In this document: in pieces, positions 934 through 25,375 of the stretch | Numbering within the stretch: position 1 is the stretch's first letter | Layout of the letters: the number at the start of each line of letters is the position of its first letter | Virus record (IMG/VR): IMGVR_UViG_3300033571_026375 | Coordinates: 62,001 to 119,799 of that record | Strand: one strand, 5' to 3' | Source: an uncultured virus (IMG/VR IMGVR_UViG_3300033571_026375) | Lineage: Duplodnaviria; Heunggongvirae; Uroviricota; Caudoviricetes | Length of the DNA: 57,799 nucleotides | The notes under the pieces: model-generated | Database searches by the model: none | Seen by the model: only the letters and a program-made list of their open reading frames with translations | Told to the model about the DNA's origin: nothing | Made by a program: the position numbers and the translations under genes

Positions 934-3900
934 TTATTGTGGTGGTTCTTCGTTACCTACGCGATTTTGATTAAGTGCTGTATTGACATTTCCTCTTACA
1001 ATATCTCCTAATGGACCTTCCAATAGTTTTTGTAGTGCTTCTGCTCCGTTAACATTAATCTCCAATGGCTTCTGTTGTGTTAGAGTTAAATTAATTTGTG
1101 GTGGAATATTAAGTTTTTGTAATTGGCCAATAAATCTATCAAAGGTGGCGGTAAATTGGGCTAATTTATCAAAATCAGGTCCGCCACTATTAGATACACC
1201 ACTAGTGCCTCCGCCAGATTCATCCGTCATTCCGCCATATTGCCTATACATAATAGGACCGCCCGCTTGCTTATATACTACAGGACCACCATTATTAAAT
1301 CTATTACTATTAATATCTTGTAATAAAGCAAGATTATTCCTGGTAGCATTTCTATTAACTACAAATTCACCAGGAGTGAGCATAGCAGGCACAGTATCAG
1401 TTCCTTTGGGCTGATAAGGAATTAACATGCCATTATTAGCATAAATTAATCCTCCGTACTGTTTACCAACAGGCGGATTCGCTCCTCCTGCTCCTGGTGC
1501 TGGTAAACCTACCGCTGTTGAGCCCGGTAAAGATACTGAGCCCACTTCTTTATTTAATTCTAACCATCCTTCGTATAGCGCTTTTCCTTCTGCCTGGCCA
1601 TGCTTTATTTGAGCATCTAGAATATCATAGTAAGTAAATCCAGGATTTTGTACCGACTCATAATTTCTAGCATTACCTGTTAGAGATTGTATAGCTACAG
1701 AAGATCTTTGAACGACACCTAATAAATACTGAAAGCGTTGTTGAGCCGTTGCTCTTTCTGCATTTATGAGAGCAGCCTTTTGATCGGACGATGCTTTTGC
1801 TATTTTATCTTCAACCATAGTTATAACTTGATCTTTAGTTAGATCTTCGTTAATAGCGTTTGCATCAAGTGCATCAAACAGATTACGAGCTTGCTTTATC
1901 TGATTATCTATTTCAAAAAATAATGGCGCTCTATTTCCAAATTTTTTATATCCGCTTAATATTTGAGTTTGTTCTTGACGTTCTTCGTGTCTTTGTCTCG
2001 CTTCAGCCCATTGCTTATGATCTGGGTTGTGACCCCCGTTCGCATAATAACTCGGTGTGATAATACCACCATCAGCTTTATAATTTCCATCATTAATAGC
2101 ACTCAATAGAGGTAAATGTTTTTTTGTTGCTCTAGCATTAACTACAAATTCTCCAGGAGTCAACATTGCTGGTACGGTATCTGTGCCTCTTGGTTGATAA
2201 TTTATAAGAGTTCCATTACTAGCATATACCATACCTCCGTTGTACAAACCAGCGGCTCCCGCCGCAGGAGCAGCGGCGGCACCGGCCGCAGCGGGACCAG
2301 GAACAGCACCAGCAGGTGCAGCGGCGCCTCCGAGCATACCCGCAAGAGCATCTTTGGCCGCCCCAATGGTGTCGGTTACTGATTGTTTCGCCGAGTCTAT
2401 GCTCTGACTAATCATTACAATTATTTTTGATTGTATGCTATTAACTTCCTCGTCTACCCAAGCTGGTTTTTCAACTGAAGCTTTGGCTATCGCGGCCTCG
2501 GCTTTCATTCCAGTATATTCTATGGCGCCCATAATGAGTTTTGTACTAATACCCATATTAGTTCTATTTTGTAGTTGTAGCGTTAAAATATTTTCTGCAT
2601 TTTTTTGGTTTTTATTTTGACTATCTTTACAACAATCTAAAATTTTACCTGTTGATTCATCTAATTTTTTAGGAACAGGATTATTAATTAATAATGATTT
2701 GATATCCTTGCCAAGAATCTCTACATTTTTTACATCTTTACCAACATTACTGAGTTTTGCAGCATTCTTGTCTGATACAAACAAAGGAGGAGCCGCGGGA
2801 GCAGATTGTCCTCCGGCTGATAAATATGAAACAGTTCCGCCTTTGCTACGGTTGAGAGTTTTTAATAAAGGCAAGTGTTTTTGTGTGGCGGCTCTATTAA
2901 CCACAAATTCACCCGGCGTTAACATAGCCGGAACAGTATCAGTACCCCTAGGTTGATAAGGAATAAGCATGCCATTTTGAGCATATACCACACCACCCCT
3001 AGACAATCCTTGTGCTTCTTTTTCTTGTTTTAAGACACTATCATATTTACCAAATCCTTTTTTCCATCTATCTTTCTTTTGATAAGCTATACTATTAAAA
3101 TAATTATATTCTCCTAGTTTACGTCTCCAGAATGCATAAGCTGTTTTATATTGAGTAAGAGGGCTTGTTCTACCCCACATAACTGTTTTTCCGCGAACAC
3201 TCATTGGTCGATTTGCTATTTCCATTTGTTTAGCAACGTCTGTACTACTTGCAGACTCTACAAATTCATCTGCGGCTCCCTGTTTTTTTTCTGGAGGCAC
3301 GGGTCGAACACCAAATGGTATTGCTGGTGCGGCCCCCGCAGATTGACGTATACCCGCATTACCTTCTTTATTATTTTGGTCAGTACCGAACTGGCCGGAT
3401 GGTAAGAATCCTCCTTGTTTTTTTATTCTAGCTTTATCTTCTTCTGATAAATTTCTAGTATCTTGAGGAGCACCGCCTGGCTTATAATTAAACCCGCCCT
3501 TTCCATCATATGTTGTAGAACTAGGGACAAATGGAGCGGTAGTAGTGTGGGTTTGAGACGAAACAGTTCTGCCTCCAACAGGACTTTTAGCGCGCATAGC
3601 GCCGCCGGTTTCATCTCCTTCTAAACCAATACCTTTATTTAAGCCACTAGTATCTCTTTGATCATATGCTGTGGTTCTTCTATTACTACCTCTAATTCTC
3701 TTGCCTGTAGCATCTGTCTGATAGCCATAAACAGCGGCCGTAGTAAATAACTTTTTGATCGGCTCTGGTGGAGCATGACCGGCCACTAGTTGTCTACTTA
3801 CATATTCTTTATATGTTAATTCATCATAATAATTAGGAGTTTCTATCTTTTTAACAGTTTTACCAGCAGGATCGACAACAGTGGGCTCCAGAGGGGGAAC

Positions 3901-6900
3901 AGTTGGTGTGTTACCTCCACCGCTACCGCCGCCGCCACCACCACCAGAACCTCCAGTACCAGGAGCTGGTGGAATTGTTGGAGCACCTCCTGGGGGTTTT
4001 TGATTTTGTTTATTTGCATTAAGCATCATCCAAGCCTGCCATGCAGCCAGTAATGCGGCACCACCCGCTGCTAATCTTGCCCATTTGGACTTAGTGACAG
4101 CAGCCCATTTATCTTTGACATATCCTCTCCATGTTCTTCCTTTAATACTAATATCATCATCATATGCTTTTACTAAATCATCATAATCTTTACTACCTTT
4201 TTTAATTTTTAATTTATCAGCGGCCTCGTCTATACCCTGTTGTCTAGCTTTTGTACGAGCATTTTCAAAAGCCCCGGCCATATTGGGATCAGAATCTACA
4301 ATACCTCTAGCATTAGGACCAAATATAATATTTCCATCATCATCTATCATATATCCATTTTTCTTCAGATCATCTGCAAATTGTCCAAATCTATCGGGAT
4401 ACTGTGTTGCTATGGTATTCCAAGCATCAGCATCGTTCATCTTTGTCGCACCAGCATCAAGTTTCAATTGTTCTATTTGAGCATTAACTTGTTGTTTAGC
4501 AGCTGAGCCTGGTCCGGTCTCAAAATAATCTTTCATCTGTTGGTCTGAAAATTCATTTATAGACTTATTATATTTGGCTCTAGCTTCGGCTACGGCATTA
4601 TTCCAGGCTTCTGCTACTTTTGGACTCTTAAATTTAATGGGTTTTTCTGGTGTTGCCGGTTGCTCGGTTTTCGTTTTTGCTTTAGCTTCAGTATCAGTTT
4701 TAACATCATCAGCTGTTTTTGGTTTAGCTTTTGCATCATCGGACATGTCTTTGAGAGCTGCTTTACTTTTATCTGCTATGTCCTTAGCTTCTGCTGAACG
4801 ACTAACAGCAGTATTTTTTATCTTGACAGGCTGACCGTCTGCAGCTTCTTGAAAAAATCTATATTTAAATAATCCCTTTGTGTTTACAGCGCCGGCGCCA
4901 ATACCCAAAGCCATATCAGCAATGTCTACAATATTTTCCATAGAAGCAGCAGCTTCCTGATACGAATTTTGACTTCTTAATAACTGTTGACGAGCAAATT
5001 CTTTAGGATCGGTATTTTTTAGATTTTGATAATTCTTTTCTTCAACAGCATCAGCCAAATACATTGCTCCAAGCGAACCTCCGATAGTTAATACCGCTGC
5101 TCCTCCAGCAGCTGCTATTCCAGCGGGCAATAAAAATGGTGAAGCAGCGCCTATTGCTGCTGTCATGACTAAATTTCTCGCTCCTTTACGCAAACCTTCT
5201 CTATTGCCTTCATCTATAATATCTTCTCTCAAACCTAATTGTTCATTATCTCTAATACTTGTAGACATACCTTGTTCATTGGCGACAAGTTCCTCCAAAG
5301 ACCCCACTCCTGTACCGCCGATAGCTCTTAAAGAAATAAGACCTTCTAAAGTATTTAGTCTTTCCATATACTGTAATCTTTTCTGTCCCCATTCTTTTTG
5401 TTTGGCTCTTAGCGTATTAATTTCAGATGGATCTATCCCTCCGGCTCCACCGCTACCCCAAGCTTCAACCCCTTGTTTTTCCTTTGTTTGATTTTGTGCT
5501 AATTTAGCTTCTGCATCTCTTAGATCTTGGGCTTGTCGGGCAGAATCTAGTCTATACCTGAGAACATTCGCCCATGTATCAAGTTGAGGAGAGAGAGTAC
5601 GAATATGCGGTTCTATTTCGGCTCTTTCGTCTTGTTTACGAGTAGTATCAGAAAATACACCGCCACTACCAGATAAAAAGCCTTTGGGCATCCAGGCATC
5701 GGATGAGCTGATATATGGATTAGCAGCCGATTGAACATCTGGATTTCTAGATAACCATGTTAATAAATCTAGTACATTAACAGTATTATCTTTGGTCATA
5801 TCTGTTAATTTAAAACGCTCTTCTAATAGTTTTTTATCTTTACGTGCCCCACGAGATGCATCAAAAATGCTTAAGTTTCCCATAAAATATTCAACACCAA
5901 AAACATTAGATCTTGCTAATGCCATTTTTTTCTTATCAAACAAATCTTTTTGTATACGAAATGTCTTATTTTGTGCTTCATAATTAGCTTTTTTAGCTTT
6001 ATCAATAATATCTTGTGATATTCCTTGTCTAATTAAAGTACCCGCAATTTGTCTATCATACATATCACCTGCCGGTAAGTCTACGCCGGTTTCCGATCTT
6101 TCTCGTAGATCATCTTCTGCTATTTTAAGCTGTTCTGGAGTAACACCAAGATTTAAAAGATGGTCCTTGAAAACCGTTCGTCTAGTATAATCTCTCACCG
6201 TCATGTCCAAAGTATCTTCTCTAGATGCATTACCGGCTAATAATTGGTCATTTCTAATCCCTGTAATCAATGCTTGTTGAATAACTTTTGGCGATATGTT
6301 TCCAACACCATTGCCGGTAACGTCTACAACAGGGTCGGCACTTCCGCCGCTTAAATAAACCACCCCTCCTTGACTATATCCTGTAGATCCACCACTATTC
6401 AAGGATCGTAGTAGTGGTAGATTTTTTTGTGTTGCTCGTCTATTAACAACAAATTCTCCTGGGGTTAACATCGCGGGAACTGTATCAGTGCCCTGGGGTT
6501 TAAAGTTGACTAAGTTTCCACCCGTTTGAGCATAGATAACTCCGCCAGCCGCCTTCTTTTGTGGCAATACAGCGCCACGAGACATAAACCATTGATCTGT
6601 TGGTAAAGCTCCAAAAGCATTAGACAAACCAAATAGAGTATGGGCTTCCATAGCGTCTTTATAGAATTGAGACCCATCTGTTTTTAAAGATTGAGCAAAA
6701 TTAGCCATACGAAGAGCATTATCTGGTTCGTTTTTCTCATCAAAGAAATAGTCTTGTCCTACCCAATTTCCTTTTCCTCCATACCAATCCATCAAACGAT
6801 AAAGTCCCGTTCTAATAAAAGATAAGGTTTGAGGATCAAAATACGGCATGCGATTTGGTCCTCTCAGATTGAATATATCATCACCAAATTTTTGAATAAG

Positions 6901-9900
6901 ACCTTTTCGTATATCTTTACCAGCAAATTCATTATATGGATTAAAAATTACTTTGACTAAATCAGAAACAGTGGCGTTTTCTGGTATCGCACTAACTAAC
7001 GTGGCGTCTGATAATGAACCATCTCGTCCAACAGTTTTCAATTTGGATCCCTGAAGCTGATTACCTAATATATTTTGCCAATCCGGACTCAATTTCATAC
7101 CCGATATTTTACCAAATCTAGACGCAGCTCCTAAACTACGAAATACTGCGGCGATAGGCACCTTATTCTCATAAAACTGCTTTAACAGACTAGTATCCCC
7201 ACCAGCTAAGGAACCAAAAGCATTAGCTGCTCCACTAATCATAGTCATAGCATTATCTAGAGCATTATAAGCTGATACATTAGGAGCCCTATTTTGTAAT
7301 TGCGAGACATAAGCTCCTGCTTGATTTAATACTCCTGCCATATGCTGCGCTGCTGCTACGGGGTTACCTGATATAGCAGCTCTGAGAGCTTGAGGACCAC
7401 CAGATTTAGAAAGCCATCCATAAGGAGCACCCGGTAATTTTAGGCCCCCAAATAATGCCATCGATCCACGAATCAGTGCGGCAGTTGCTTGAGGAAGTTC
7501 AGCATCAGAAAATACAGCGCCTTTCGGCATAATTGGATCTACTTTATTTGCTCCAGAAGCTAGCTGGCCTCTAAACTCTTGGAATTTTTTGAGTAAAAAT
7601 TCTCCTACATTAACTGTGGTGGGCTCATCGCTCATAGCAGAGAACACATCTACCCCGCCGTCTCCAGCTAAGCCTACATTTTTAATTAAAGAATTTTGAG
7701 GATGATCGAATACTAAATTAAGATTTGCTGCTACTTTTTTAGCCTGTGCATCTACATTAGGATCATTATTAGTTTGAAACTTGAATAAGTCTATTATATC
7801 AGTAAAAATCGGATTAGTAGGATCATCTAGTTTCGATGCTTTTAAAATATCTGGTACTGTATATTTTTTAGTTGTAAATAATCTTTTTCGTGATTCGTCC
7901 AAATTTTGAAAAAGAGTTTCTGAAATATTATTAGGCAACAAAGTGGTAAAAGGCTTACCATCAAAATTCTTAGTTGATGGATCAAATAGTTCTCCGGTAT
8001 ATTCTTCATAAGCTATTGGTATAGATAATTGAGGTTGTTTACCCTGTATATTCACTGGTAAATTGACCTTTAATTCGTCAACCGGTAGTAATCTGCTATG
8101 TACTTTGCCTTTAGTAGCAGCAGCTTGTTGAGCAGCGACATCCTCAAAATCTTTACCTAGAATCTCACGCATATTTCCATTTATCATGAACGGAAAAGAC
8201 TTGGATATTTTTGTTGCTGTATTTTCTATATCAAAAGGCTTAGAGGCTAAGAAATCTGGATTTTTGATGGCGGGTTTGGCACCAGTCAATCCTATTTTTA
8301 CTTTATTATATTTAGCAGCATTAGTATCTATAAACTGAAGGCCATCTTTAAATTGTTGCTCTAAAGATTGTTGTGCAATAATTGCGCTAGTAGCATTCAA
8401 TTTGACTAGCTCATCTAAGGGGGCTATTTCATTTTGATCAAGAGTTATAAATTGTGCTAGACCATTATATAAACTAGATAATTTTTGTTGTAAAGCTGCA
8501 CCAAGGCCGCCGGTATCCTTATATGTGGAAGCTCCACTTAAAAAATCTACTGTATTTTTATATAGCTCATAGTTCTCTGAACTAATAGTATTAGCGTCTT
8601 TTATTCCTTTGCCGGTAATAACACCATTCATTTTTTCTAAGTCAGGATACATAGCGGATTTATACTTACCAGATCCGAAAACGACCCAGCTTTTGCTATC
8701 GAATCCATCATTTGAGGAATATGGAGTGCCAATATCGAAATTTGGCTGCTTTACAGAAACTCCCATCGCTAGTCCTGGAGCCCAGCCCGCATAATTCAAT
8801 GGGGATCTTTTATAGTACCAAATTTTAAAAGAAGGCGCAGCAGACACATCTTTATCAGTTGGTCTAATCTCTGTAGAAGTATCAAACGCTATACCGTATG
8901 ATTTACCAGCTAGTGTAGGATTCCATTCATTAGCATTAGAAGTAAAATCACTTAATTTTGGAAGATCATCAGCAAAAGCAATAGGATCCATACTTATAGA
9001 TTTATGAAGAGTAGAGTCTAATGCTTCAAATGATCGAAATCGATCTTTGTATTCTGTAGCCTTGGACTGAGCAAAATTTGTTGATTTGAACTTGTCTAAA
9101 CCCAAATATAAATTTGTCTCAGCAGCCTTGATAATAGGCATATCGCTACTAGCGTCGATAGCACCTTGGTTGTCTATATATGCATACTGATCATCTCCAA
9201 CCCTGGAAATACCAACTGCTGAGCCAACTCTAACTTTACCACTTGTTGGTTTAATTTGATCTAAGTTAAAGTTAGGACTATCGGGGTCTGCTCCCGGTGA
9301 TGGGATCGTAGTATTATCATCAGAAAAATCTAAAGTATAATAACTAGGTAATAATCTAATATTCTGCTTGTATCCAGCACTCCAAATGGCTCTATTAGCT
9401 TCTACACTAGGATCAATAATCTCTTTATCACTCATCATGCCAAATTCATCCATACTAGTTTGACTGCCCCAATTGGTAACAAAACCACCAGCAGCATAAT
9501 AAGATACTTTACCTCCTCTGGAATATCCATTATTAATAGATTTTAATAACGGAAGATTCGCTTGAGTAGCGGCTCTATTGACAACAAACTCTCCCGGTGT
9601 TAGCATTGCAGGAACAGTATCTGTACCTTTTGGTTGAAAATTGATAAATTGACCACCAGCAGCATAAACCATGCCTCCGCTAGCTAAACCTCCAGCGCCA
9701 GGAGCTTTCTGCATAATAGAAACCATTGTATTGACTTTGTCTGCTATATCTCTAAGCTCATTATTCTGGAAAGTTAATACTGTTTTAGTTAAGCCGTCTA
9801 CTATTAGTTTACTATTTTGTACTGCTATATCATTGGCTAGTTGTTGATCTAATTGTCCTAATAATCTAGTAGCTGTTGACTGTTCCGCTATTGACTGATT

Positions 9901-12900: not shown

Positions 12901-15900
12901 TTCTGCTTCTTGTCTGGTTCTAATTAAAGCTTGTTCTAGATCGTATAATACATCTGCACTAGCACCGGCTGCGCGAGCCATAACTAGATCGGCCTCATAT
13001 GCTCTTTGTGCTTCTGCTGCCGTGGCCTGATATCCACGACTCAATAATTGAGAGGATCTAGAGGATGCAACTCCTAAATCATTAAGTACTGTAGCTAGGT
13101 CTCCTAGAGATCTGACAGCAGTATTACTCGCTCCTATTGTATCTACAGAAATAGCATCGGGTCTTGCTGCTGGCCCTCTGCTTCTGCCTCCGAATAAGAA
13201 TTTCTGTACCCTGCCTCCGCTATTCAACCCCAAAGCCTTCGTGGCTTTTTCTCTTAAGATAAAGCTGCCAACAGGCAATCCTATAGGACCAATACTATCA
13301 CTGGTTCCAGTGCCCGATCCTTTAAATATGCTCATCCCTCCACTCGCAAAACTATTCATCCCATTTCGATCAGCCTGATTCATTTTATGGAGTTTCCCAT
13401 AACCAATTTTTTTAGCCATAGCTGGAGGAACATAAGCTTCACCATTACTAACCATAGCAGGTACAGTCCCACCACCAGCATAGCCCATAACGTTCTTTAA
13501 ATATGTAACGATATTATCTTTGATTGTGGATGGCCCACTAATAGTTCTCTTAACATCTGTGGGTATATCATCAGGTAGTCCAAAATATTTAGCAGCATCG
13601 CCTAACCCATTGGGAAAATCAAATCCCATGCCTTTGAGGGCTCCGGGACCACCAAGTTTTTGTACAACCTGTTCTAGTAATAACCCCTCTATATCTCCCT
13701 GTGCTTGCGAATTTGGTAAACTTTTGCCAGTTCCGTATAAATAACTAGTGATACCTTCATTAGATCGTTTTTTGGCTGCTGCTATATTACGCGGATCATC
13801 ATCAACAAATAATGAATCTGGATTCAAAAATGCAGCCTTTAATTCGGCAATTTCATCTGCACTAATATTTTCGCCACCAAAGCCTTTAAATTGAGATCGT
13901 GGTATGGGTAGATCTTTACTGGCTAAAAATCCTTGTATAAGACCCAAAGTCGATTCTGGTCTAGCCGTCACCACTCGTATATATTGTAATAAATCTTTTC
14001 TTTGTTTTATCAACTCTACTAAAGATGATCCAAGATAAGTTAATTCTGCTCCCTGTAATGCTGCAGATACTTTATTTGGGTCACTAAACTCCGAAAACAC
14101 TGGTTTGCCTGGATCGGATAATATCTTGTCGGCTCCAGTAACTAGTGTTCGGTCAAAATCCGTATTAAGTTCTTTACCTAGCCCAAGTTTTGCTAGTATA
14201 TCGCCTGTTGTGGCTACCTCTGCTAATCTCGTGGTTAATTTATCTGTTGTTTCTGATACAATAGAGCTAAAAGAAGAAGCTATTTTACTATCCATTATTC
14301 CGCTAATAACTCTAACCTTTGCGGACTGAGAAAGTGACGGAGATTCGATATCCATATTTTGATCGGCAAATTTCGATCCAAATAAGCCTGCTGCGGCAAC
14401 TTCTAGATTATTATTCTGTAATTTAGTTATCTGAGCTTTTGCTGCTCCTAATTGCCTATTGTTTGCTGTAACAGCTTTTTGAAGAATAGCTTCTTTAAGT
14501 CCTTGTGTTTTTGCATCTGGATTTCTTTGTCCTAGTATTGTGTATATCTCACCTGAACTAACTCCAACTTCTCTTTCTGTTGTACTTATGCCACCTTTTC
14601 TGCCAGATAAAATATCTAGGATATCTTTTCTACTCATGCCTCTTGCTTTTTCAAGAGTAAGGGTTTCACCCCCTTCTTTAAATTTTTGAACAATACCTCC
14701 AGATCTTAATTTCCTATAAAATTGCTTTTTATGAGATTCTAATCCAGGACCTGTATCTCCTCCATAGTATTCAAGATTGCCTAGATTGACAGTATTACGA
14801 CCAAGCGGGTCTGTTTCTATGGATCCGTCAACTTGGTCCGAAGAATTTTCTTTAAAAAACCTATTAACTGATCTATCTAATAATTTTTTAGCCAACAATT
14901 TAGCTATTAAAGCTCGTTTTGGTTCTTTGGTAGTTTTAAATTTTACTTCCCCCCATACGTTACGAGATGATACGGTGTCTACAGGATAATTGGGATTGTC
15001 TTTATTAGCTGCTTCAAGATTATGTCTTTTCCTGATTATTTCCTCATACTTAGTAGCCCAGGCTTTTTCTGCACGAGAATACTCTAGACCATCTATAGAA
15101 TCTGATTCAGGTCCTTGATAGGTTGGTCGCTGAGATTCTACTAATAATTTTCTATTCTTAGGATCTTTTATTTTTGTCTTTAATTTTCCAGTTAACGTAG
15201 GATATGCACCTTTGATCTCACGTATCTCTGCATCAGTGAGCGGTTTCTCTTTAACTCTAATAATTTGAGCATTAACTTTATCATTTAATTCTAAGTTAGA
15301 GTTTTTGTTACGTGGATATAAATAGTTATTTATGATAGTTCTCTGACTATCAGCAAGCTCTCTAACAGTATATCCTCCTTCTCGTAATTTTTTTATACCT
15401 CCTCCACGATTCATGCTGCTTAAATTGTCAGCACCGATACTTCTAACCGCACTCTTTCTCATTACAAACTCACCAGGAGTTAATCTAGCATTGACGCTAT
15501 CAGAATCTCCTGAGCCGGGAACCAATCCTCCTCTAGCAAAACCTATAACACCTCCGTCTCTGGCTCGTTGACGATTACCCCTAAAACCTCCACCAAAACC
15601 ACCAGCAAATTGAGTGAGGGCACTAGCTCCTCTAAAAGCACCCATAATAGCTATTAATGGCAAAACACCTTTAGTTGCATCAGCTACTTTAATTAGTGCG
15701 CTGGCTAAATCCAAACCAAGTCTCACTAAAGTTTGAAAACCCTTACTATCTCCTAGAGATCTAACTAAAGCACTAAATTCTTCTCTTACTTTTTGTATTT
15801 GAACCGCCAGTGCCATCTGACCTTTAGCCGCATCTATCGCAAGAGAGCCTTGACCTTGTTGTGCAATTTTCAGAGCTTCTTGAGCGGTGGAAAACTGTTG

Positions 15901-17193: not shown

Positions 17194-18081
17194 TTATGTA
17201 GTTGATTTATTTCCCTCTGATACTGATGCTGCAGGAGTTGCTTCATTGGTAGGTTCTTTGGTTTCTAAACTTTTTTTAGTTTCCTCATCTAAAATTACTG
17301 GATTGCCGTTGTCATCCAAAAATGGCTGACTATCAACTAAGTACTCTCCATCTGCATCTACTCTATTACCATCTTTATCAATGAACTCTCCGTTGTCATT
17401 AATGTACCTACCATTTTCATCTACTAATCTTCCTTCGCCATCTACAGTTCTACCTTGCTTATCTATAAATCTTAAATTGTCATTAACAAATTTATATTTA
17501 CGTAAAAACTTATTCTCGGGCAAATTCTTCTCAAAATCATTATCCAAACCGTAAATCATATTGGCCAATTTCTGTGCTCCCGCAAGAGCTACGGGATCAT
17601 CTATGCGACCCATATAGTCTTCCAGGCTCTCAAAATACTTTTTATCACTATCTTTATACACCACACAAACACTCACCAAATAATTAAATCTAGCATTATC
17701 AGCTTGACCTTCGGCACTATGATTGTCTAGGGAAGTCCTAACACTAATTAATTCTCTAATCTTACCTCGTACTTCTCTCATCTTAATGGCCATTTTTTTA
17801 GCTTCACTAAGAGCAAAACCGCCCTTGGCTAGTTTTCTTTCGCCTTCTAATAATTCTTTTTGCAAATCATTGTATTCTTTTTGCTTATCTTCGTTCCATA
17901 AGCCTTGCTCTTCGAGTAGATCATCCATTTTGGCTCTTACAACACTCTTGCTTTTAATAGCGTCTGTAAAAGCATGATTATATACTTTCTGAGCTTCTCT
18001 TTGATCCGTTAAAGAGGGCGACCTCACCATAAATGTTTTCGTCTCTTCACCAACCACAACTTTAAAATCCTCAGTTTTCAT
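17194..18081 (-). CDS. Putative tail assembly chaperone with C-terminal 7-aa DxxG repeats
   Basis: Lies immediately upstream of the TMP. Charged helical N-terminal part and a repeat tract FIDKQGR-TVDGEGR-LVDENGR-YINDNGE-FIDKDGN-RVDADGE. The function is inferred from position only. Confidence 0.5.
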   Translation of the reverse strand: MKTEDFKVVVGEETKTFMVRSPSLTDQREAQKVYNHAFTDAIKSKSVVRAKMDDLLEEQGLWNEDKQKEYNDLQKELLEGERKLAKGGFALSEAKKMAIKMREVRGKIRELISVRTSLDNHSAEGQADNARFNYLVSVCVVYKDSDKKYFESLEDYMGRIDDPVALAGAQKLANMIYGLDNDFEKNLPENKFLRKYKFVNDNLRFIDKQGRTVDGEGRLVDENGRYINDNGEFIDKDGNRVDADGEYLVDSQPFLDDNGNPVILDEETKKSLETKEPTNEATPAASVSEGNKSTT

Positions 18082-18104
18082 ATTATACTGTCCTTTCTTC
18101 TATG

Positions 18105-18413
18105 TTAATTATTTTTTGTATTATCTTTTGGTACTCTAAAAGAATAATTGAAATTTTGCTTAAAAAATCCACCATACTTATAAAAATCATCTTCAAGATT
18201 TCTGATCTGAGCATTTCCTTGGTTTAGAATCTGATTTCTAGTTCTTTCCCACATATCAGAAAATTCTATTTGTTCCGAGGTAAGGTTATCTTCATTTTCA
18301 ATATCTTGCCCCCACAAAAATCCAAAAGTATTTTCAAACTTGCTTAATGCTCCTATCATTGTTGTTTCTACTCTTTTTTTAAGATGAAATATCAGTCGTT
18401 CAGTATCTGTCAT
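18105..18413 (-). CDS. Hypothetical protein (tail assembly region)
   Basis: 102-aa ORF tightly packed in the operon, with an AAGGA RBS upstream. Confidence 0.7.
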   Translation of the reverse strand: MTDTERLIFHLKKRVETTMIGALSKFENTFGFLWGQDIENEDNLTSEQIEFSDMWERTRNQILNQGNAQIRNLEDDFYKYGGFFKQNFNYSFRVPKDNTKNN

Positions 18414-18427
18414 AGTATTATTCCTTA

Positions 18428-19474
18428 TTATTTTTTCCTATTAAAATTTAATTCTTTGAGCTGATCTCTAATGTTTTGTTTCACATCCGGTAAATCCGCG
18501 TCTTTGATAGTTCCTGCATTCAATACCGTACTAACTTTATTTTGTCTTTTCAAGAGATTTTCCGGACTATTCAATTTTAAAATATCATCTCTTTGAGCTG
18601 CTGAATCAGCCATGAGAAAAACTTCGTTAGCTTTTTTCATGCGATCAGATCCCAATATATTATTTACACTCTTTTCCTGTTTTTGTTTCTTATTTTCTCT
18701 TTGGTTATGAATCATCCATCCCTCAAGAGCATCGTCATCCTCTATAATTTCTTTTTCAGGACACTCTGGATGTTCATATACTCTATCATACATTAATGAT
18801 ATACTAAGAATAGCCTTTTGTTCTTCATTAAAATCTATAATACTATATGGAAATAAATGATTTTTATTAATAGCATAATAATTACGCCAATAGTCGCTAC
18901 GAGCAAGAGCTTTTAACGTGGATATATCTATAATATTAGAGCTAATCTTATGAATTAAATGATTAAATAGCTGATAATTATTATTGTTATAAAATATTAA
19001 ATTATTAGTTTGATAAATATATAATGTATTACTAATAATAAATTCGTTTTTAATATTAGCGCAATAATTTTCTAAAGTTAAAAAATCTAAACTATGAGAT
19101 AGATTAAATAACTCATTATATCTGGTTCTAGTAGAAGCTAATTCTTTTCTATATTTAGTTTTCTTAGTATTATCAAAAAAATGATAGTATAAATCTACCT
19201 TAATATTTTCAATTTTTTTCTCCAGCATTTCCATATCTTTTTTATATGCTGGGTATACTATGTCTAATTCAAATAATAAGTCTTCTATATTATCTTCTAA
19301 AATAAATGAACTAGAATATAAATTGTCTTCGTATGTATTGTCGTATAATAGATTAGCCTGAAGTCTTATATCTATACTAGCAGACCTCAACTCGTATAAC
19401 ACATCTTTGTGTTCTATAAGTTGCTTACCAGATAAAATTCTATTTACAAATTTTTCTAGTTCTATTGTTTTCAC
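18428..19474 (-). CDS. Hypothetical protein, possibly a tail assembly chaperone partner
   Basis: 348-aa ORF with a GTG start abutting the upstream stop. Located between the tail tube and the TMP. Confidence 0.65.
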   Translation of the reverse strand: MKTIELEKFVNRILSGKQLIEHKDVLYELRSASIDIRLQANLLYDNTYEDNLYSSSFILEDNIEDLLFELDIVYPAYKKDMEMLEKKIENIKVDLYYHFFDNTKKTKYRKELASTRTRYNELFNLSHSLDFLTLENYCANIKNEFIISNTLYIYQTNNLIFYNNNNYQLFNHLIHKISSNIIDISTLKALARSDYWRNYYAINKNHLFPYSIIDFNEEQKAILSISLMYDRVYEHPECPEKEIIEDDDALEGWMIHNQRENKKQKQEKSVNNILGSDRMKKANEVFLMADSAAQRDDILKLNSPENLLKRQNKVSTVLNAGTIKDADLPDVKQNIRDQLKELNFNRKK

Positions 19475-19475
19475 A

Positions 19476-19625
19476 TTATTCTGTCTGCTTAGCTATAATA
19501 GAATTTTGTAAACTAGATATCTCTTTATCTTTATCATCTAGTTGTTTTTGTAATTCTGTAATAGCTTTTTGAGACTGAACAATATCTACATACATTTTAC
19601 CTATTATAGTAAAAATTTCTTCCAT
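19476..19625 (-). CDS. Small coiled-coil protein, 49 aa (not in the ORF track)
   Basis: Read manually: MEEIFTIIGKMYVDIVQSQKAITELQKQLDDKDKEISSLQNSIIAKQTE*. It has a GGAAGGA RBS and fills the gap, with its stop adjacent to the next start. Confidence 0.75.
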   Translation of the reverse strand: MEEIFTIIGKMYVDIVQSQKAITELQKQLDDKDKEISSLQNSIIAKQTE

Positions 19626-19659
19626 CGTGTCCTTCCTTTTGAATCTCTGTAACTAATTA

Positions 19660-20718
19660 TCAACTAATTGGGAACGTGCTATCGCTCTCATAAATATCAG
19701 TACTATAGTTTACAGTACCTGTTGGTGCGCTATAGGTGAAATCATTGTAAGTTTGATAGCTATAAGTTACTGTTGCATTACCACCACCAGTATCACCACC
19801 GGTATAGTTAACACTTGTTAATTTATTCTTCTTACCAAGATCAATTGTTGTACCGTCACAAAGCCTAATCACAATTTCTTTGTTAGTGAGAGCTTTAGGA
19901 TTGTTACATACAGCTTCGGTATTTCCTGCAACACCGACTAAATCGCCGTCACCAGCAACACACTCAATTTCGCATGTTACTTCAACAGGGAAATTCACGT
20001 AGCGATAGTATGGAGTACGCTGACCTAGTCTATAGATACTTTCTCTACCTAAATTCATACTAACACTAACATTTTGAATTTTCATACCGGAGGGAATGCC
20101 TCCGCTAAGATAAGATAGGGTAGAAGCAGCATTAGCGGCTCCTGTTGGTAAAACACTAGAAGAACTCCATAAACCACGACGCAAAATACCAACGCCGCTT
20201 GGGACTGCACTGCCAAGCTTGTTCTCATTAGCAGTTGCGGATGGGGATGCAAGCCAAACTTTGTCGTTACTAACTAGTGTAACTTCTTCTGTAAAATTAC
20301 CCTCCGTTGGGAAAGTATATGTTACACTAGATAAGTATGCTGGGACACATTCAACCGATGCTACCGGAGTGCCGGTATTAGCTGAATCTGTATCTTTGAA
20401 TAAATTTAATCTAACGCCGCAACGATGATTAGCCAATGTGCTAAGACTACCCGTGCCCATGGTCATAGCATACAAAGTAGGGTTATTATCTAATACTTTA
20501 TTAAGTGTAATTTCAACTTCTGGAATTTCTTCGTAGTTATCATATAATTCTAGCTGTCCAAGCTGATAAACTGGTTCAAGATTAAAATTGGTGTTCATAC
20601 CTACGCTCTGTAAGCCTCTAACAATATCATATGATGTATTTTGAGCACTTGCTGTGCCCGATGGGCCGTTAACTTCTACAGATTGACAAGCGTAGTAAAT
20701 TCTATTATTATTAGCCAT
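19660..20718 (-). CDS. Major tail tube protein with two tandem tube-like domains
   Basis: Located after the neck genes. Ser/Thr/Gly-rich beta protein with a strong GGAG RBS. Internal repeat LQSVGMNTNFNLEPVYQLGQ / IQNVSVSMNLGRESIYRLGQ. Confidence 0.75.
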   Translation of the reverse strand: MANNNRIYYACQSVEVNGPSGTASAQNTSYDIVRGLQSVGMNTNFNLEPVYQLGQLELYDNYEEIPEVEITLNKVLDNNPTLYAMTMGTGSLSTLANHRCGVRLNLFKDTDSANTGTPVASVECVPAYLSSVTYTFPTEGNFTEEVTLVSNDKVWLASPSATANENKLGSAVPSGVGILRRGLWSSSSVLPTGAANAASTLSYLSGGIPSGMKIQNVSVSMNLGRESIYRLGQRTPYYRYVNFPVEVTCEIECVAGDGDLVGVAGNTEAVCNNPKALTNKEIVIRLCDGTTIDLGKKNKLTSVNYTGGDTGGGNATVTYSYQTYNDFTYSAPTGTVNYSTDIYESDSTFPIS

Positions 20719-20755
20719 AATTTAATCTCCAGAAAATATTGTGTGTTATTGGTTA

Positions 20756-21712
20756 TCAGATAATAACTTGCGTGGTTAATCTTAATGTACACCAATATAA
20801 ATTTTTATTCGCGCTCTCCATATTTAATACACTGATTTCTTTGAAATAGCACAAATTCCAACGATAATTTTCTAACAGGTCAGTATAGCATAATCCGTTG
20901 GGATTGAGAGATCCATTATAGGTCAAAGGATAGGTTCCACTATTGACCACTTTATTAATATCGTATAAAATAATAGTCTTATTTTTCTGTAGACGAATAA
21001 TATCTATAATTTTATTGTTGTCTATCGCATTCTCAGTAAATACATGTAATAAAATATCTTGATCTACAGCAAAATCATAAGATCCTAATTGCCATGGTTG
21101 AGAATAGCTTCTAGAAATAGGCTCTATAACAATTGCTGGCATTTGAACCCTATGAGAAGCTCCTATAGCATATTCTCCAGAGTTTGCCTGATTAATTTGT
21201 GGGACCGGTTTGTATGTTAACTCTTGTAATTCTTTCCATTGTGGATCAGAACTATTTTTATATACTTGACACCATCTATAAGCATAATTGGCTCGTACAT
21301 TACTATTTATGGGGATGGAAGAATTAAAAATAACTTGTCCCATAGGATAATTGATGCTATATGAGATGGCATTATTTCCAGTAGGTCCAGGATAAAATGT
21401 ATTACCAATATATAAACCAGAAAATAATATTGGTTGATAATTATTGTATGTAATACCGGATTCCCAAATCCAGTCTTTTTTAAAGGTTTGCCATACTTGT
21501 CCATTACTATATCCTGGTTGGGATACTGGCTTTAATGAGCTGAAAGAGCCTCCGTATAAACCAGAAGTTGGAATATTAATATTTACAAAACCCCCGATAT
21601 TCAAAAAGCCCCAGTCTAAGAAGTGTTTCAGATTGGCCTCAAGCTGATTAAGTAGCTGATTTTCTCCTATATTTGATATATTATTAAATGTGTTTGAATG
21701 ATTACAACTCAT
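20756..21712 (-). CDS. Putative tail terminator/neck protein
   Basis: Start moved to ATG 21712 (MSCNHS), which forms an ATGA overlap with the upstream stop. Segment VQMPAIVIE...DILLHVFTE resembles tail-terminator patterns, and the gene directly precedes the tube gene. Confidence 0.55.
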   Translation of the reverse strand: MSCNHSNTFNNISNIGENQLLNQLEANLKHFLDWGFLNIGGFVNINIPTSGLYGGSFSSLKPVSQPGYSNGQVWQTFKKDWIWESGITYNNYQPILFSGLYIGNTFYPGPTGNNAISYSINYPMGQVIFNSSIPINSNVRANYAYRWCQVYKNSSDPQWKELQELTYKPVPQINQANSGEYAIGASHRVQMPAIVIEPISRSYSQPWQLGSYDFAVDQDILLHVFTENAIDNNKIIDIIRLQKNKTIILYDINKVVNSGTYPLTYNGSLNPNGLCYTDLLENYRWNLCYFKEISVLNMESANKNLYWCTLRLTTQVII

Positions 21713-22356
21713 ATATATCTCTCCAATTCTTTTTCTATTTGTTGCAATAGGGAGTCGTCTAATCTTTCTATAGCTCTTGTAACCCAATTATTGTTAACAG
21801 TACCAGCAAATTGAGCGGGAACTCTCCAATTAATTTTTTGAGAAGATACCATGATAGCAGAACCTGTTCTGGATCTTGGATTGTTACCCATTTGTACTGT
21901 ATAATTTCTAATTAAAATTTTGTTACCATCTAGTAATAACCATCTTAACCACGGGATAGTTGATCCGCTAGTATCATCAACTACTATAGATTCAGGTAAT
22001 GATAAAACATCAGAAAAATCTGACTTAATAATATCCAAACTAAATCCACCACTGAGTCTTCCGGCCCTGGCTGATAGGGGAGATTTTCTCAGATTAACAT
22101 TAGAGGACCATGCATCAAAAAGCCTATTGATTCTAGAATCTGCATCTGGAACACCCAACTCTGATCGTAGTTGCCCACTTAATAAAGATACATATTCTGG
22201 CTCAGCAAAAAGTGCTTGTTTAACATAGGTAGGTAATATTTTTTGTGTAGATGACTCTACTTTATCGAAAATAGGTTGTAGATAAGCTATAATAGCAGAT
22301 AAAATTTTACTATTTATTTGTGAGTCGGTATCTAGAATTTTGAATTGAATATTCAT
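21709..22356 (-). CDS. Putative neck/tail-completion protein
   Basis: Start probably ATG 22356 (MNIQFK, ATGA overlap with the upstream stop). Located between the head-closure-like and terminator-like genes. Confidence 0.5.
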   Translation of the reverse strand: MNIQFKILDTDSQINSKILSAIIAYLQPIFDKVESSTQKILPTYVKQALFAEPEYVSLLSGQLRSELGVPDADSRINRLFDAWSSNVNLRKSPLSARAGRLSGGFSLDIIKSDFSDVLSLPESIVVDDTSGSTIPWLRWLLLDGNKILIRNYTVQMGNNPRSRTGSAIMVSSQKINWRVPAQFAGTVNNNWVTRAIERLDDSLLQQIEKELERYI

Positions 22357-22874
22357 AATATTTTTTGCCACATAGTAATAATATAGTTATTATGTCCTAG
22401 TCCACATGGTTCGGGCTCATTAACTCTACTATATCTACGATGTCCGTAGCCGGATATTGTACTATCTATAATAATTTCTTTTGCATTTTGTAATTTAGGT
22501 AGTAACGATATGCTGCATATAGATTGAGCCATATTATTAGTAATGTTTACACTTTTAGAATCCCAATTAAACCAGTACTTACTATCGAACAGCATAGCTA
22601 AATAAACAGTTTCTTCTGGACTAAGATCAATAATACCATAGCTATTACATACAGGACATATGCCCATAGGAGCAAAAGGAGCAGGGCCGGTATTATTATA
22701 CATATTAGACGATCTTTGATTAATAGGATCAAAAATACAATTGCTACAGATGGCCTGTTTCAATGAACTATAGATAATTTTACATGGCACAGACAAACCA
22801 TTCTTACCAATCAGCGAATCAATAGCGCTATTATAAATGCTTTTCAATTCTGGGAAATTAATATTGTCTATCAT
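22353..22874 (-). CDS. Putative head-closure/head-tail joining protein with a Zn-finger-like insert
   Basis: 173 aa with CSNC...CPVC. First of three neck-region genes. Confidence 0.5.
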   Translation of the reverse strand: MIDNINFPELKSIYNSAIDSLIGKNGLSVPCKIIYSSLKQAICSNCIFDPINQRSSNMYNNTGPAPFAPMGICPVCNSYGIIDLSPEETVYLAMLFDSKYWFNWDSKSVNITNNMAQSICSISLLPKLQNAKEIIIDSTISGYGHRRYSRVNEPEPCGLGHNNYIITMWQKIL

Positions 22875-22900: not shown

Positions 22901-25375
22901 TTATACACTATATGGGATTCTTTGTTCTTTAGTACCGGTTCCGAATACATACGGGAATGCTGGTACTGATAAATTATTATCCTCAAAAGTTAAATAATAA
23001 GCATATGTTCCGGATGGATATTCTGGGGTGACTCCGAATCTTCCGTTGAAATTATCTAAGTCTCCATATCCAGAAACATATACATAATCTTCTATAAATA
23101 ATCCCATAGGCAAAGAATATGGAGTATCTCCAACAACCATAGTGTTCCAATATTTCCAGTTTATTGGTCTATGGGTACTATCCGTAATACCAGAATAGCT
23201 CGGTCGCATTTTAATAATAGCACTATCTATATTCATGCTTCCAGAATAAGCATAAGGACCATATATAGGATAGCCATCTGTGCAAAAACCCAGAATCTTA
23301 GAATGTCCATCAGAGTGTCTAAAATAGTCATGATTATAGTGACTACCGCTATAATAGCTATTAGATTTTATTAATTTATCTGTTTCCCAACACCTCTTTA
23401 AAAATTTACCGTCTGTATACTTATATGAACCATCCACATTCACATAACCACCACAATCATCTGCTCCAAAAAAATGACTATTAAAAGATAGATTATATGT
23501 AAAACCAGATGGTGCCGATACGAATCCGGGTAGTGTTCCTGTGCCAGCTGATATAGATAAAATTGGAACACCATTATTCATTATTCCATGTATACCAGTA
23601 TTATTGATTCTCATAGGATTATGAGTATATTGACCGCCTCTATAATCCAATCTAAATGTATAATTTTGATCAACAATCACCGCTCCATTTTTGAAACCTA
23701 TTCTGGCAGAAGTACCATTATTATTAAGAGGGCGCCCTGCTAAAGCCGGATAAGGATCACCATCTGTAGATATTGCAAATTTATTTCCATCAAAAATCAT
23801 AGATGTATTACTCGGATAAGATCCACTATTATTAGAAATAGTTAATAAAGAAAAATCGAACCAGTTTTTGTCTAATGGAGATCTTTGCCAATAATTATTT
23901 TGTACACAAAAATAAAACCAGTCGCTATCGTATAGCAATGAGCCTGGGGTGCCAGAGCTAGTGGGATTAGATATGGTCCCGGAACTAACAGGATTATATA
24001 ATTTATCTGTTTTAATACTTAGTCTTTTATAACTATTACTATAGTCTATAGTAACTCCTTCTTCTCCTACTATATTGAGTCTGTCTCCATCTGTTAAGTT
24101 TATAATTATTCTATCATTGTTAGAAATATTATTTGGTGAAGATGCTATGATCAAACGAGTATCTGGTGGGGTAGGAAAATCGATAGATGATTCGTCTACT
24201 GTTAGGTATGCTAAGCTATTCCAGGAATTAGTGCCATTTCCTACTTTCATCCTATGGGTGTCTAGCTCGTATCCTATTTCTCCGATAGCTAAAGTAGGAT
24301 TAATACCTGTCCATTGAGACAGGGTGTCTCTTCTAACCCTAATTCTAGTATAATTACTGTCGTTATAGGATAACGGAGTGACAGGAGCACCTGATCGAGA
24401 TATGGTAATTGGTATGCTGGGTGTAGTATATTGTCCTTGACCAGCAGAATTTCTACCACCTACTCTAAAAATATATGTTTTGTCTAACTCTAAATTATCG
24501 ACAGCAAATGATGTTGAACTAGTAATACCAGCAACTAACCAGTTGGTAGAGTATATAGCATCACCAGACACGGGTCCGTATTGTATAGTGTAATCTGTTA
24601 CATTAGCACCTCCGTCATCCGCAGGATAATTCCAGTTTAAACTAACTTGTTTGTATGCTGTTTCGGATATAACGAGCGACTGTGGCTCAAAAGGAGGAAC
24701 CGGATCGTATACCAAATTCAATAGAGATGGACTAAGAGCAAACTCGTTGCCTATATTAATCACGCCTCCTGCTCCTAAGCCGGATCTTACTCCGCTAAGT
24801 ATCAGAATTATTCTATTATTTTTTTGCCACGATATAGAGTTATTATGAGGTAATAAGTGTTCGGTTACCGGTATGGATACCTGTGAGTTTGCGCTTACTG
24901 TGACAATCGATATATTAGTTTTTTTATAATCTCGGATAGTTGAGAAATTATTGCTTGGCAAATATCCGCCTGATTGAGAGCACGATGCTATATGTATATT
25001 TGTAGATGATCCAAAATCTGAAACTAGTGCTTTTCTGAAATCGCTCTCTAAAGCAGGAACGCTTATATTTACATTAATATTGGGGTCGGAACCCAATTGA
25101 GGAGCAGACGTTAGAGTCTTGTCATCTATCCCACTAGATAAATTTAAAATTAAATTAGCAGATACTAGTGCTCCTTTATGGATAGGTAAAGATAAATCTA
25201 TTGTGTTGACACAAAATCTTTCTATGATATTTTTATTATTTCTATAACCAGATGGATTATATCCTATTAATTGATAGTTTCCGTCTATATCCTCTATAAT
25301 TTGAGAATTATTTGGTTCTATATAAAAACCCTGTAATATACCAGAAGATAATGGAATAGATAAATTAAAGCTCAT
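22901..25375 (-). CDS. Virion appendage protein: FN3 + Mtd-N/hyaluronidase-N-like + degenerate YHYH domain
   Basis: FN3: LNWNYPADDGGANVTDYTIQY...YIFRVGGRNSAG. Fibre N-module: RIRVRRDTLSQWTGINPTLAIGEIGYELDTHRMKVGNG. YHYH-family motifs: HSKILGFCTDGYPIYGPY and LDNFNGRFGVTPEYPSGTYAYY. Confidence 0.8.
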   Translation of the reverse strand: MSFNLSIPLSSGILQGFYIEPNNSQIIEDIDGNYQLIGYNPSGYRNNKNIIERFCVNTIDLSLPIHKGALVSANLILNLSSGIDDKTLTSAPQLGSDPNINVNISVPALESDFRKALVSDFGSSTNIHIASCSQSGGYLPSNNFSTIRDYKKTNISIVTVSANSQVSIPVTEHLLPHNNSISWQKNNRIILILSGVRSGLGAGGVINIGNEFALSPSLLNLVYDPVPPFEPQSLVISETAYKQVSLNWNYPADDGGANVTDYTIQYGPVSGDAIYSTNWLVAGITSSTSFAVDNLELDKTYIFRVGGRNSAGQGQYTTPSIPITISRSGAPVTPLSYNDSNYTRIRVRRDTLSQWTGINPTLAIGEIGYELDTHRMKVGNGTNSWNSLAYLTVDESSIDFPTPPDTRLIIASSPNNISNNDRIIINLTDGDRLNIVGEEGVTIDYSNSYKRLSIKTDKLYNPVSSGTISNPTSSGTPGSLLYDSDWFYFCVQNNYWQRSPLDKNWFDFSLLTISNNSGSYPSNTSMIFDGNKFAISTDGDPYPALAGRPLNNNGTSARIGFKNGAVIVDQNYTFRLDYRGGQYTHNPMRINNTGIHGIMNNGVPILSISAGTGTLPGFVSAPSGFTYNLSFNSHFFGADDCGGYVNVDGSYKYTDGKFLKRCWETDKLIKSNSYYSGSHYNHDYFRHSDGHSKILGFCTDGYPIYGPYAYSGSMNIDSAIIKMRPSYSGITDSTHRPINWKYWNTMVVGDTPYSLPMGLFIEDYVYVSGYGDLDNFNGRFGVTPEYPSGTYAYYLTFEDNNLSVPAFPYVFGTGTKEQRIPYSV

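Follow-up and report, generated by a model that had tools for sequence, protein, structure and literature searches.

The virus record IMGVR_UViG_3300033571_026375, from an uncultured member of the Caudoviricetes, is 119.8 kb long and has an estimated completeness of 74%, and the window analysed here is the whole stretch of 57,799 nucleotides (nt) at bases 62001–119799 of that record. The minus strand carries nearly all long open reading frames (ORFs) of the window, which is phage DNA, and a 223-kb IMG/VR contig contains the two stretches tested with 100% identity. A giant ORF near the start of the window encodes a protein of 5,391 amino acids (aa), and its source is an uncultured jumbo phage. 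The protein is matched by PF10145 (PhageMin_Tail) at aa 186–379 (E 6.6e-23, 82.1 bits against a cut-off of 33.2) and by TIGR01760 (tape_meas_TP901) at aa 145–491 (E 9.5e-28, 97.2 bits against a cut-off of 28.8), and its N-terminal ~520 aa are matched by five PHROG tape measure families, identifying it as a giant tape measure protein (TMP) of the TP901 type. At ~0.15 nm per residue, a TMP of 5,391 aa would correspond to a tail about 800 nm in length, an estimate that the non-helical blocks of the protein make uncertain. None of the cultured phages is a close relative, and the best tblastn matches of the N-terminal 575 aa are the TMP cores of SPbeta-like phages, with ~24% identity. PF09718 (Tape_meas_lam_C) has no match in the protein. 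Against cultured phages, megablast of the whole TMP gene gives no match, and none is obtained at E ≤ 1e-5 when the C-terminal 755 aa are searched by tblastn; single copies of the repeated module described below do match at E ≤ 0.01.

The 17-residue sequence GTDTVPAMLTPGEFVVN is present in five exact copies in the 5,391-aa ORF, starting at aa 2495, 3540, 4722, 4975 and 5236. An exact recount in the ORF translation confirms the five positions given in the initial annotation, and the three codon strings quoted there are those of the copies at aa 5236, 4975 and 4722. Five exact copies of a 17-mer cannot have arisen by chance. The irregular spacing of the copies (1045, 1182, 253 and 261 aa), to which the initial annotation also pointed, is real and unlike the periodicity of a ruler, and it reflects a conserved segment architecture. 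Chunked self-BLAST has shown that the copies are alike over about 70 aa, with 47–65% identity, and no further. A hidden Markov model (HMM) built from the five copies detects two additional, diverged ones at aa 518–570 and 1212–1258, and a broader profile searched over the whole 119.8-kb record gives eight matches, every one of them inside the TMP ORF, including a tandem pair at ~aa 1207–1296. The 17-mer is the core of a ~70-residue TMP module, of which the window protein has eight copies (Table 1).

Table 1. The giant TMP gene, its module copies and associated features. Positions are those of the window; E, E-value of the match to the broader profile; i-E, independent E-value.
Feature	Position	Strand	Remarks
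Giant TMP gene, 5,391 aa	934..17109	-	ORF; PF10145, TIGR01760 and PHROG matches
C-terminal tail past the last module, aa 5286-5391	937..1254	-	Collinear with the C-terminal ends of relatives
Copy 7, aa 5215-5285	1255..1467	-	Exact 17-mer 1354-1404; last copy, 106 aa from the C-terminus; E 2.2e-29
Copy 6, aa 4954-5026	2032..2250	-	Exact 17-mer 2137-2187; E 2.8e-29
Copy 5, aa 4700-4767	2809..3012	-	Exact 17-mer 2896-2946; E 7.0e-29
Copy 4, aa 3519-3589	6343..6555	-	Exact 17-mer 6442-6492; E 6.3e-27
Copy 3, aa 2474-2542	9484..9690	-	Exact 17-mer 9577-9627; E 4.7e-30
Copies 2 and 2b, tandem, diverged, aa ~1207-1260 and 1249-1296	13222..13491	-	E 7.8e-8 and 2.0e-4
Variable cassette, aa ~572-838	14596..15396	-	Between the helices of copy 1 and the closing GG-x-x-QKF-x-x-G bracket
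Copy 1, aa 518-570, diverged lambda-like class	15400..15558	-	Core DSDSVNARLTPGEFVMR; i-E 3.2e-07 (five-copy HMM), E 8.8e-23 (broader profile)
295-aa ORF, chaperone candidate by position only	17194..18081	-	Directly upstream of the TMP gene

The module begins with a Gly-Gly/aromatic bracket followed by the core D-T-V-P-A-M-L-T-P-G-E-F-V, and then come two short helices with L-x-x-x-N at their end and a closing Gly-Gly bracket. Over 910 distinct modules, the G-G, aromatic-Ala and Gly of the first bracket, D-x-x-P-A-x-L-x-x-G-E-F-V of the core, L-x-x-x-N, the second G-G and the last G are near-invariant. The modules fall into three subclasses, namely a lambda-like first copy located after the TMP core domain, a class that closes with ...QKF-x-x-GG, and the class of the five invariant copies. 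A hydrophobic and Gly-rich stretch lies ahead of copies 1 and 6, as judged by eye. None of the 41 modules tested against Pfam has a family, as was the case for 6 modules tested earlier. PF09718, to which the Protein Atlas had led at 0.86 among otherwise unnamed clusters, was rejected as the module family, since it is actually the neighbouring region in lambda.

Pairwise Nei–Gojobori comparison of the 51-nt cores has shown that 40–43 bases are identical in each of the ten pairs, with 7–11 synonymous differences over ~13 synonymous sites and zero replacements. The proportion of synonymous differences (pS) in the core is thus 0.53–0.85, which is near saturation, and in the module outside the core pS is 0.51–0.81 and the proportion of nonsynonymous differences (pN) is 0.30–0.43. 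The initial annotation had proposed an old duplication with selection on the peptide and had called for the pairwise ratio of nonsynonymous to synonymous divergence among the copies; the near-saturated synonymous sites without any amino-acid change support the proposal, and synonymous divergence is not low. The copies do not decay freely in close relatives either. The three closest relatives share 85–92% identity with the window protein over the 702 C-terminal aa searched; in each of them the five exact cores persist at matching positions, and the modules of these relatives are 95.5% identical to those of the window, against 86.5% for the remainder of the protein.

A search for relatives among proteins of 2,965–9,435 aa gives 843 matches at E ≤ 0.001 out of 1,349 candidates scored. 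The window protein and the best 120 of these 843 giant relatives, 121 proteins altogether, all carry 3–9 modules, and the exact 17-mer makes up 362 of their 657 loosely defined cores, while a change of V to I alone distinguishes another 85 from it. At the DNA level, 79 other IMG/VR loci, which cover the TMP part within the fetched flank (longest reading frame 4,136 residues), contain 63 exact cores in 42 loci; these are encoded in 48 DNA versions, and every synonymous codon family is used. A search of metagenome_contigs for close relatives that would give orthologous DNA of the C-terminal copies found none, and so the orthologous codon evidence is limited to the TMP parts covered by the viral loci.

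When the core is set aside, copies at corresponding positions in different genes have an identity of 0.59–0.68, and paralogous copies have one of 0.53–0.64 within a gene and of 0.53–0.62 between different genes. Since copies within a gene are no more alike than copies between genes, purifying selection, not gene conversion, explains their identity. Concerted evolution is absent, the lineage diverged after the duplications had taken place, and the copies are maintained independently of one another. A recent duplication, gene conversion or a recombination signal at the DNA level could also keep copies alike, and the exchange of a cassette at a module border, described below, speaks for such a process; the limited identity of the core DNA with its near-saturated pS, the number of DNA versions behind the 63 exact cores, and same-gene copies that are not more alike than different-gene copies make it extremely improbable.

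Alignment with distant relatives has shown three stretches that are collinear between them and the window protein. The N-terminal ~575 aa have 60–75% identity to the distant relatives, a stretch of ~2,400 aa at about aa 1200–3595 has 35–59% identity and holds copies 2, 2b, 3 and 4, and the C-terminal ~430 aa (region 4958–5391) match the C-terminal ends of the distant relatives. Therefore, the module copies are located at the borders of unlike segments. Copies 2 and 2b are 99% identical in close relatives, and the alignment shows them conserved in 17 related loci. The variable cassette of copy 1 has 16–19% identity to the relatives P0002–4 over aa 601–800, against 87% overall, and in the alignment of three close relatives its place is taken by unrelated sequence of differing lengths between fixed borders (~aa 571 and ~aa 838). 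The copy-1 border is demonstrably a site of segment exchange between relatives.

The cassette of the window contains a PD-(D/E)xK-like string (PVD...GEVKFK), seen by eye only, and its comparison with PDB sequences gives only chance-level kinase rows (E about 0.09). The ~975-aa block between copies 3 and 4 (6556–9474, aa 2545–3517) is rich in aromatic residues, Pro, Gly and Asn, unlike a helical ruler; it is 35–59% conserved across the distant relatives and has no match in Pfam, PDB sequences or the Atlas. EF-hand Pfam domains (PF13202, PF00036 and PF13405) are present in the giant relatives P0005, P0011, P0014, P0017, P0022 and P0040, and PF03983 is present in others, such as P0029, P0056 and P0085, which suggests that inserts vary across this TMP lineage.

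The module is widespread. In a library of 1.84 billion proteins, 15,207 representative proteins match it at E ≤ 0.001. At E ≤ 0.01, the first-copy query retrieves 301 records of cultured phages and the invariant-class query 170, and these are mostly annotated TMPs of Gordonia, Mycobacterium, Pseudomonas, Vibrio, Klebsiella and Salmonella phages and of cyanophages. The module lies behind three different TMP core families, namely PF10145 in the window, PF06791 in lambda and PF20155 in 9NA, Cheetobro and MaInes, and therefore behaves as a mobile module. It ends 62–71 aa from the C-terminus in all seven Gram-negative siphophage TMPs checked (lambda, 9NA, Carvaje, VpaJT_1, MaInes, phi46:1 and JWF). 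The profile search does not detect the module in HK97 gp16.

A 41-row module profile searched against all PDB chain sequences matches residues 732–786 of lambda gpH (E 1.2e-4). The Gly-rich C-proximal region of gpH (~723–793) has the bracket, the core and the two-helix layout of the window module, it is preceded, by eye, by a hydrophobic and Gly-rich stretch like that ahead of window copies 1 and 6, and PF09718 covers gpH residues 627–701, upstream of the module. Lambda gpH has one copy, located behind PF06791 and not PF10145, with a degenerate core that shares just A and G-E-F-V, whereas the window protein has eight copies; its module ends 67 aa from the C-terminus, against 106 aa for the last copy of the window. 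The TMP tail of the window resembles the end of gpH by eye only. In a one-sequence search, the profile also matches JBD30 gp46 at residues 1015–1067 (E 3.1e-5), where a single C-proximal copy lies 92 aa from the end, in contrast to the eight copies of the window. Judged from these profile matches, the lambda gpH and JBD30 gp46 segments appear to belong to the same module family as the window copies. Douge TMP gp16 (sequence of PDB 8ZDO/8ZDQ) matches the module twice, at residues 964–1027 and 1412–1468 (E 3.6e-12), and is thus a TMP of ordinary length with two internally placed copies, the cores of which are diverged (S-D-S-M-L-A-R-V-S-N-G-E-F-I). The T4-like cyanophage S-SM2 carries the 13-mer DTVPAMLTPGEFV, which is identical to the window core. 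Its one module lies in SSM2_012 (NC_015279, locus 2502–4802), which is annotated as a transmembrane protein, is flanked by the baseplate hub genes and by a gene for a transglycosylase, and is probably the TMP of S-SM2.

The AlphaFold model of a single module (81-aa query, 41 aligned sequences) has a mean predicted local distance difference test score (pLDDT) of 65.6 and a predicted template modelling score (pTM) of 0.30, and only two short helices are confident (residues 45–50 and 52–60; pLDDT ~85 over 41–60). The model of the tandem copies 2 and 2b (18 sequences) has a mean pLDDT of 48.4 and places a short hairpin and then two helices in each copy. Of the fold of the module alone for which the initial annotation had asked, the two helices are obtained with confidence, and the remainder is of low confidence. 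A Foldseek search with the single-module model gives no match, as expected of a poor model. In JBD30, residues 1022–1066 of gp46 form a 'hook' of a short beta-hairpin and two helices in an AlphaFold2-multimer prediction (PMC11445458), and this fold description agrees with the secondary structure of the low-confidence module model. The poor monomer models may be compatible with a module whose folding depends on oligomerization or on binding to a partner.

TMP processing has been described in lambda and T5 and proposed in JBD30. Lambda gpH is matured to gpH* and gpHC by the removal of a ~14-kDa C-terminal piece, which is cut "from the glycine-rich region"; gpHC stays in the lambda particle, and the cut site and the catalyst are reported as not known (PMC12617516). 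By mass arithmetic, a 14-kDa piece, the size of which is taken from gel mobility, would begin at about residue 710–725 of gpH, just upstream of the module. In T5, cleavage of pb2 takes place after R1127, and pb2 residues 1085–1127 are lodged between hub subunits after receptor binding; the order of the parts of pb2, namely a hydrophobic stretch, the anchor, the cut and a C-terminal coiled coil in the hub, is the same as in the module region (PMC10038345). By analogy with T5, the JBD30 paper puts forward, as a speculation, a TMP cut at residue 1066, after which the hook would serve as an anchor in the baseplate (PMC11445458). The T5 pb2 anchor and cut site was itself considered as a module homologue and rejected, since the short look-alikes seen by eye do not exceed shuffles. 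As for structural data, the lambda structure in the part of the paper available describes only the C-terminal coiled coil of gpH (PMC11101478), one lambda gpH entry in the PDB has a chain that covers residues 818–849 only, and the Douge structure models only residues 1658–1699 of the TMP (PMC13033339).

Family scans of the window identify the genes for the large terminase (TerL; 51109–53142) and the portal (48867–51053), a weak major-capsid match at 45779–46792 adjoined by a cement protein, and several fibre-like ORFs with fn3, Laminin_G, Mtd_N and YHYH domains, and the TMP gene is late in this TerL–portal–capsid–fibre block. A second giant ORF (30586–44658, 4,690 aa) is located on the same strand as the TMP gene, between the head and fibre genes, and its sole family match is a He_PIG Ig-like domain. 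An 824-aa ORF (22901–25375) unites fn3, Mtd_N (major tropism determinant N-terminal domain) and YHYH and, by these domains, resembles a receptor-binding fibre; conservation of this ORF is limited to 19 of the 79 related loci. Upstream of the TMP gene is a block of eight ORFs (17194–22874) of 173, 220, 343, 352, 49, 348, 102 and 295 aa, which is syntenic in 75–79 of the 79 related viral loci, the 49-aa ORF being present in 52 of them. The tube and chaperone genes are presumably among these eight ORFs, and the 352-aa ORF (19660–20718) is a tube candidate by eye only. The seven ORFs of the block that were scanned, all but that of 49 aa, match no family in Pfam or PHROG. By inspection only, no canonical −1 frameshift pair could be established ahead of the TMP gene. 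Downstream of the TMP gene (record 41677–62921) are ORFs of 1,488, 526, 526, 1,775 and 2,772 aa; the first four, scanned in full except for the 1,775-aa ORF (first 800 aa), have no family match save a weak beta-roll match. In this lineage, the proteins of the distal tail and the hub appear to be unrecognisable by sequence.

It is highly probable that the repeated element is a TMP module kept by selection and homologous to the element in lambda and JBD30. As to its function, the reading tentatively preferred here, with somewhat less than even confidence, is that of a docking 'hook' or junction node located next to sites of TMP processing. The module would not fold alone; its folding would require the assembled TMP oligomer or a partner in the tail lumen or baseplate hub. 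It would adjoin TMP processing sites and mark the borders where segments of giant TMPs are held, possibly cut, and exchanged between phages. The many copies of one chain would have to fit one shared partner or each other, so that a change would be penalised in all copies together, and this requirement may be the reason why the core sequence is frozen.

Several points weigh against this reading. Both AlphaFold models, with the mean pLDDT values given above, are poor. A hub with only three crevices cannot accommodate eight copies per chain. The module is internal in four actinophage TMPs (Cheetobro, MacGully, Bosnia and Douge, with one to three copies) and in the cyanomyophage S-SM2, and seven of the eight window copies are far from the C-terminus, in contrast to the pattern of a single copy near the end. 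The 13-mer of S-SM2, identical to the window core in a T4-like phage whose tail parts differ, is more easily explained by a universal partner or an intrinsic chemistry than by a phage-specific docking site. Residues 1070–1135 of T5 pb2 score 1.5 bits against the module profile, and shuffles reach up to 8.7 bits (974 shuffles scored of 1,000 made). The role of the JBD30 hook is itself a published speculation (PMC11445458), the cut in lambda gpH is not placed to either side of the module (PMC12617516), and the module region is not resolved in the lambda, Douge and JBD30 maps (PMC11101478, PMC13033339 and PMC11445458).

It is also possible, though unlikely, that the module is a processing module, that is, a self-cleaving or protease recognition site that would make the giant TMP a polyprotein cut at up to eight junctions. 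Analogy with other phages argues for this idea, since lambda gpH is cut, with no catalyst known, in the Gly-rich region that holds the module (PMC12617516), T5 pb2 is cut as described above (PMC10038345), and the proposed cut in JBD30 gp46 at residue 1066 coincides with the C-terminal edge of the module match (PMC11445458). The location of the modules at borders of unlike segments is consistent with it, and the near-invariant D, G-E-F-V and N over the 910 distinct modules would suit catalysis or recognition. However, the Asp residue is not conserved in lambda, seventeen invariant residues exceed the needs of a cleavage site, the neighbouring ORFs scanned contain no protease family, and the T5 cut site has no significant likeness to the module. 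If the modules were such junctions, giant TMPs would be polyproteins whose segments, among them the swappable copy-1 cassette and the conserved ~975-aa non-helical block that separates copies 3 and 4, would be released from the tail and reach the host before the DNA as an exchangeable payload, and the same chemistry would explain the 50-year-old observation of the lambda gpH cut; this extended proposal is distinctly unlikely.

An element that engages the cell envelope after ejection, through LysM-like peptidoglycan binding or membrane insertion, and thereby anchors the extruded TMP channel would account for the 13-mer shared with a T4-like cyanophage by a universal partner. Small repeated modules on Gly-rich linkers are typical of wall-binding domains. 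In agreement with such a role, the module is spread over phages of Actinobacteria, Proteobacteria, Cyanobacteria and Bacteroidota, the profile has a faint match to a LysM receptor kinase in the PDB (E 0.86), and T5 pb2C, at the equivalent place, has been proposed to digest peptidoglycan (PMC10038345). This role is nevertheless very doubtful, because at E ≤ 10 Pfam LysM (PF01476) matches neither any of the 41 modules nor any part of the 119.8-kb record, whereas 12 of 14 control genomes do match, and because the order of a hairpin and then two helices in the low-confidence model differs from the beta-alpha-alpha-beta order of LysM. The copies may also be landing pads for a tail assembly chaperone, for which the 295-aa ORF is the candidate, keeping the TMP soluble and recruiting tube subunits. 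This ORF adjoins the TMP gene upstream in all 79 related loci and, with a median identity of 64%, is the best conserved neighbour, and one partner shared by many copies would freeze the motif. Tail assembly chaperones of ordinary TMPs coat the whole protein, however, and ordinary TMPs carry one module near the C-terminus, yet their chaperones are unrelated; the 295-aa ORF has no Pfam or PHROG family and no chaperone family match. A landing-pad role is therefore improbable.

Among these alternatives, the docking hook or junction node remains the preferred reading. The identity of the protein as a TMP is ordinary, and a giant TMP has a precedent in a cultured phage. Gp96 of Thermus phage P23-45 is a 5,002-aa TMP with a fused virion RNA polymerase in an extraordinarily long tail (PMC10770324), and it is a precedent for functional non-ruler domains inside a TMP; its lineage is unrelated to that of the window phage, and no module copy is detected in it (score −0.6 bits). 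The module itself is without a family name. A search of the literature library found no publication that joins the GEFV core motif with tape measure proteins, and in print the module is found only as the predicted JBD30 hook and, implicitly, as the glycine-rich region of lambda. Eight copies of the module, with an invariant 17-residue core, make this TMP a novel variation on a known type of protein.

TMPs are usually regarded as simple helical rulers, and a widespread ~70-residue element without a Pfam family goes beyond that. The module sits at the spot where the ruler of lambda is cut by an unexplained mechanism, and residues 732–786 of lambda gpH are a defined, mutable target for this old open question. 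In a lineage with 271 IMG/VR relatives, there are up to nine modules per protein, with a core as strictly conserved as an active site. The module thus offers a handle on how giant TMPs are built, how they exchange cassettes and, perhaps, how they carry cargo.

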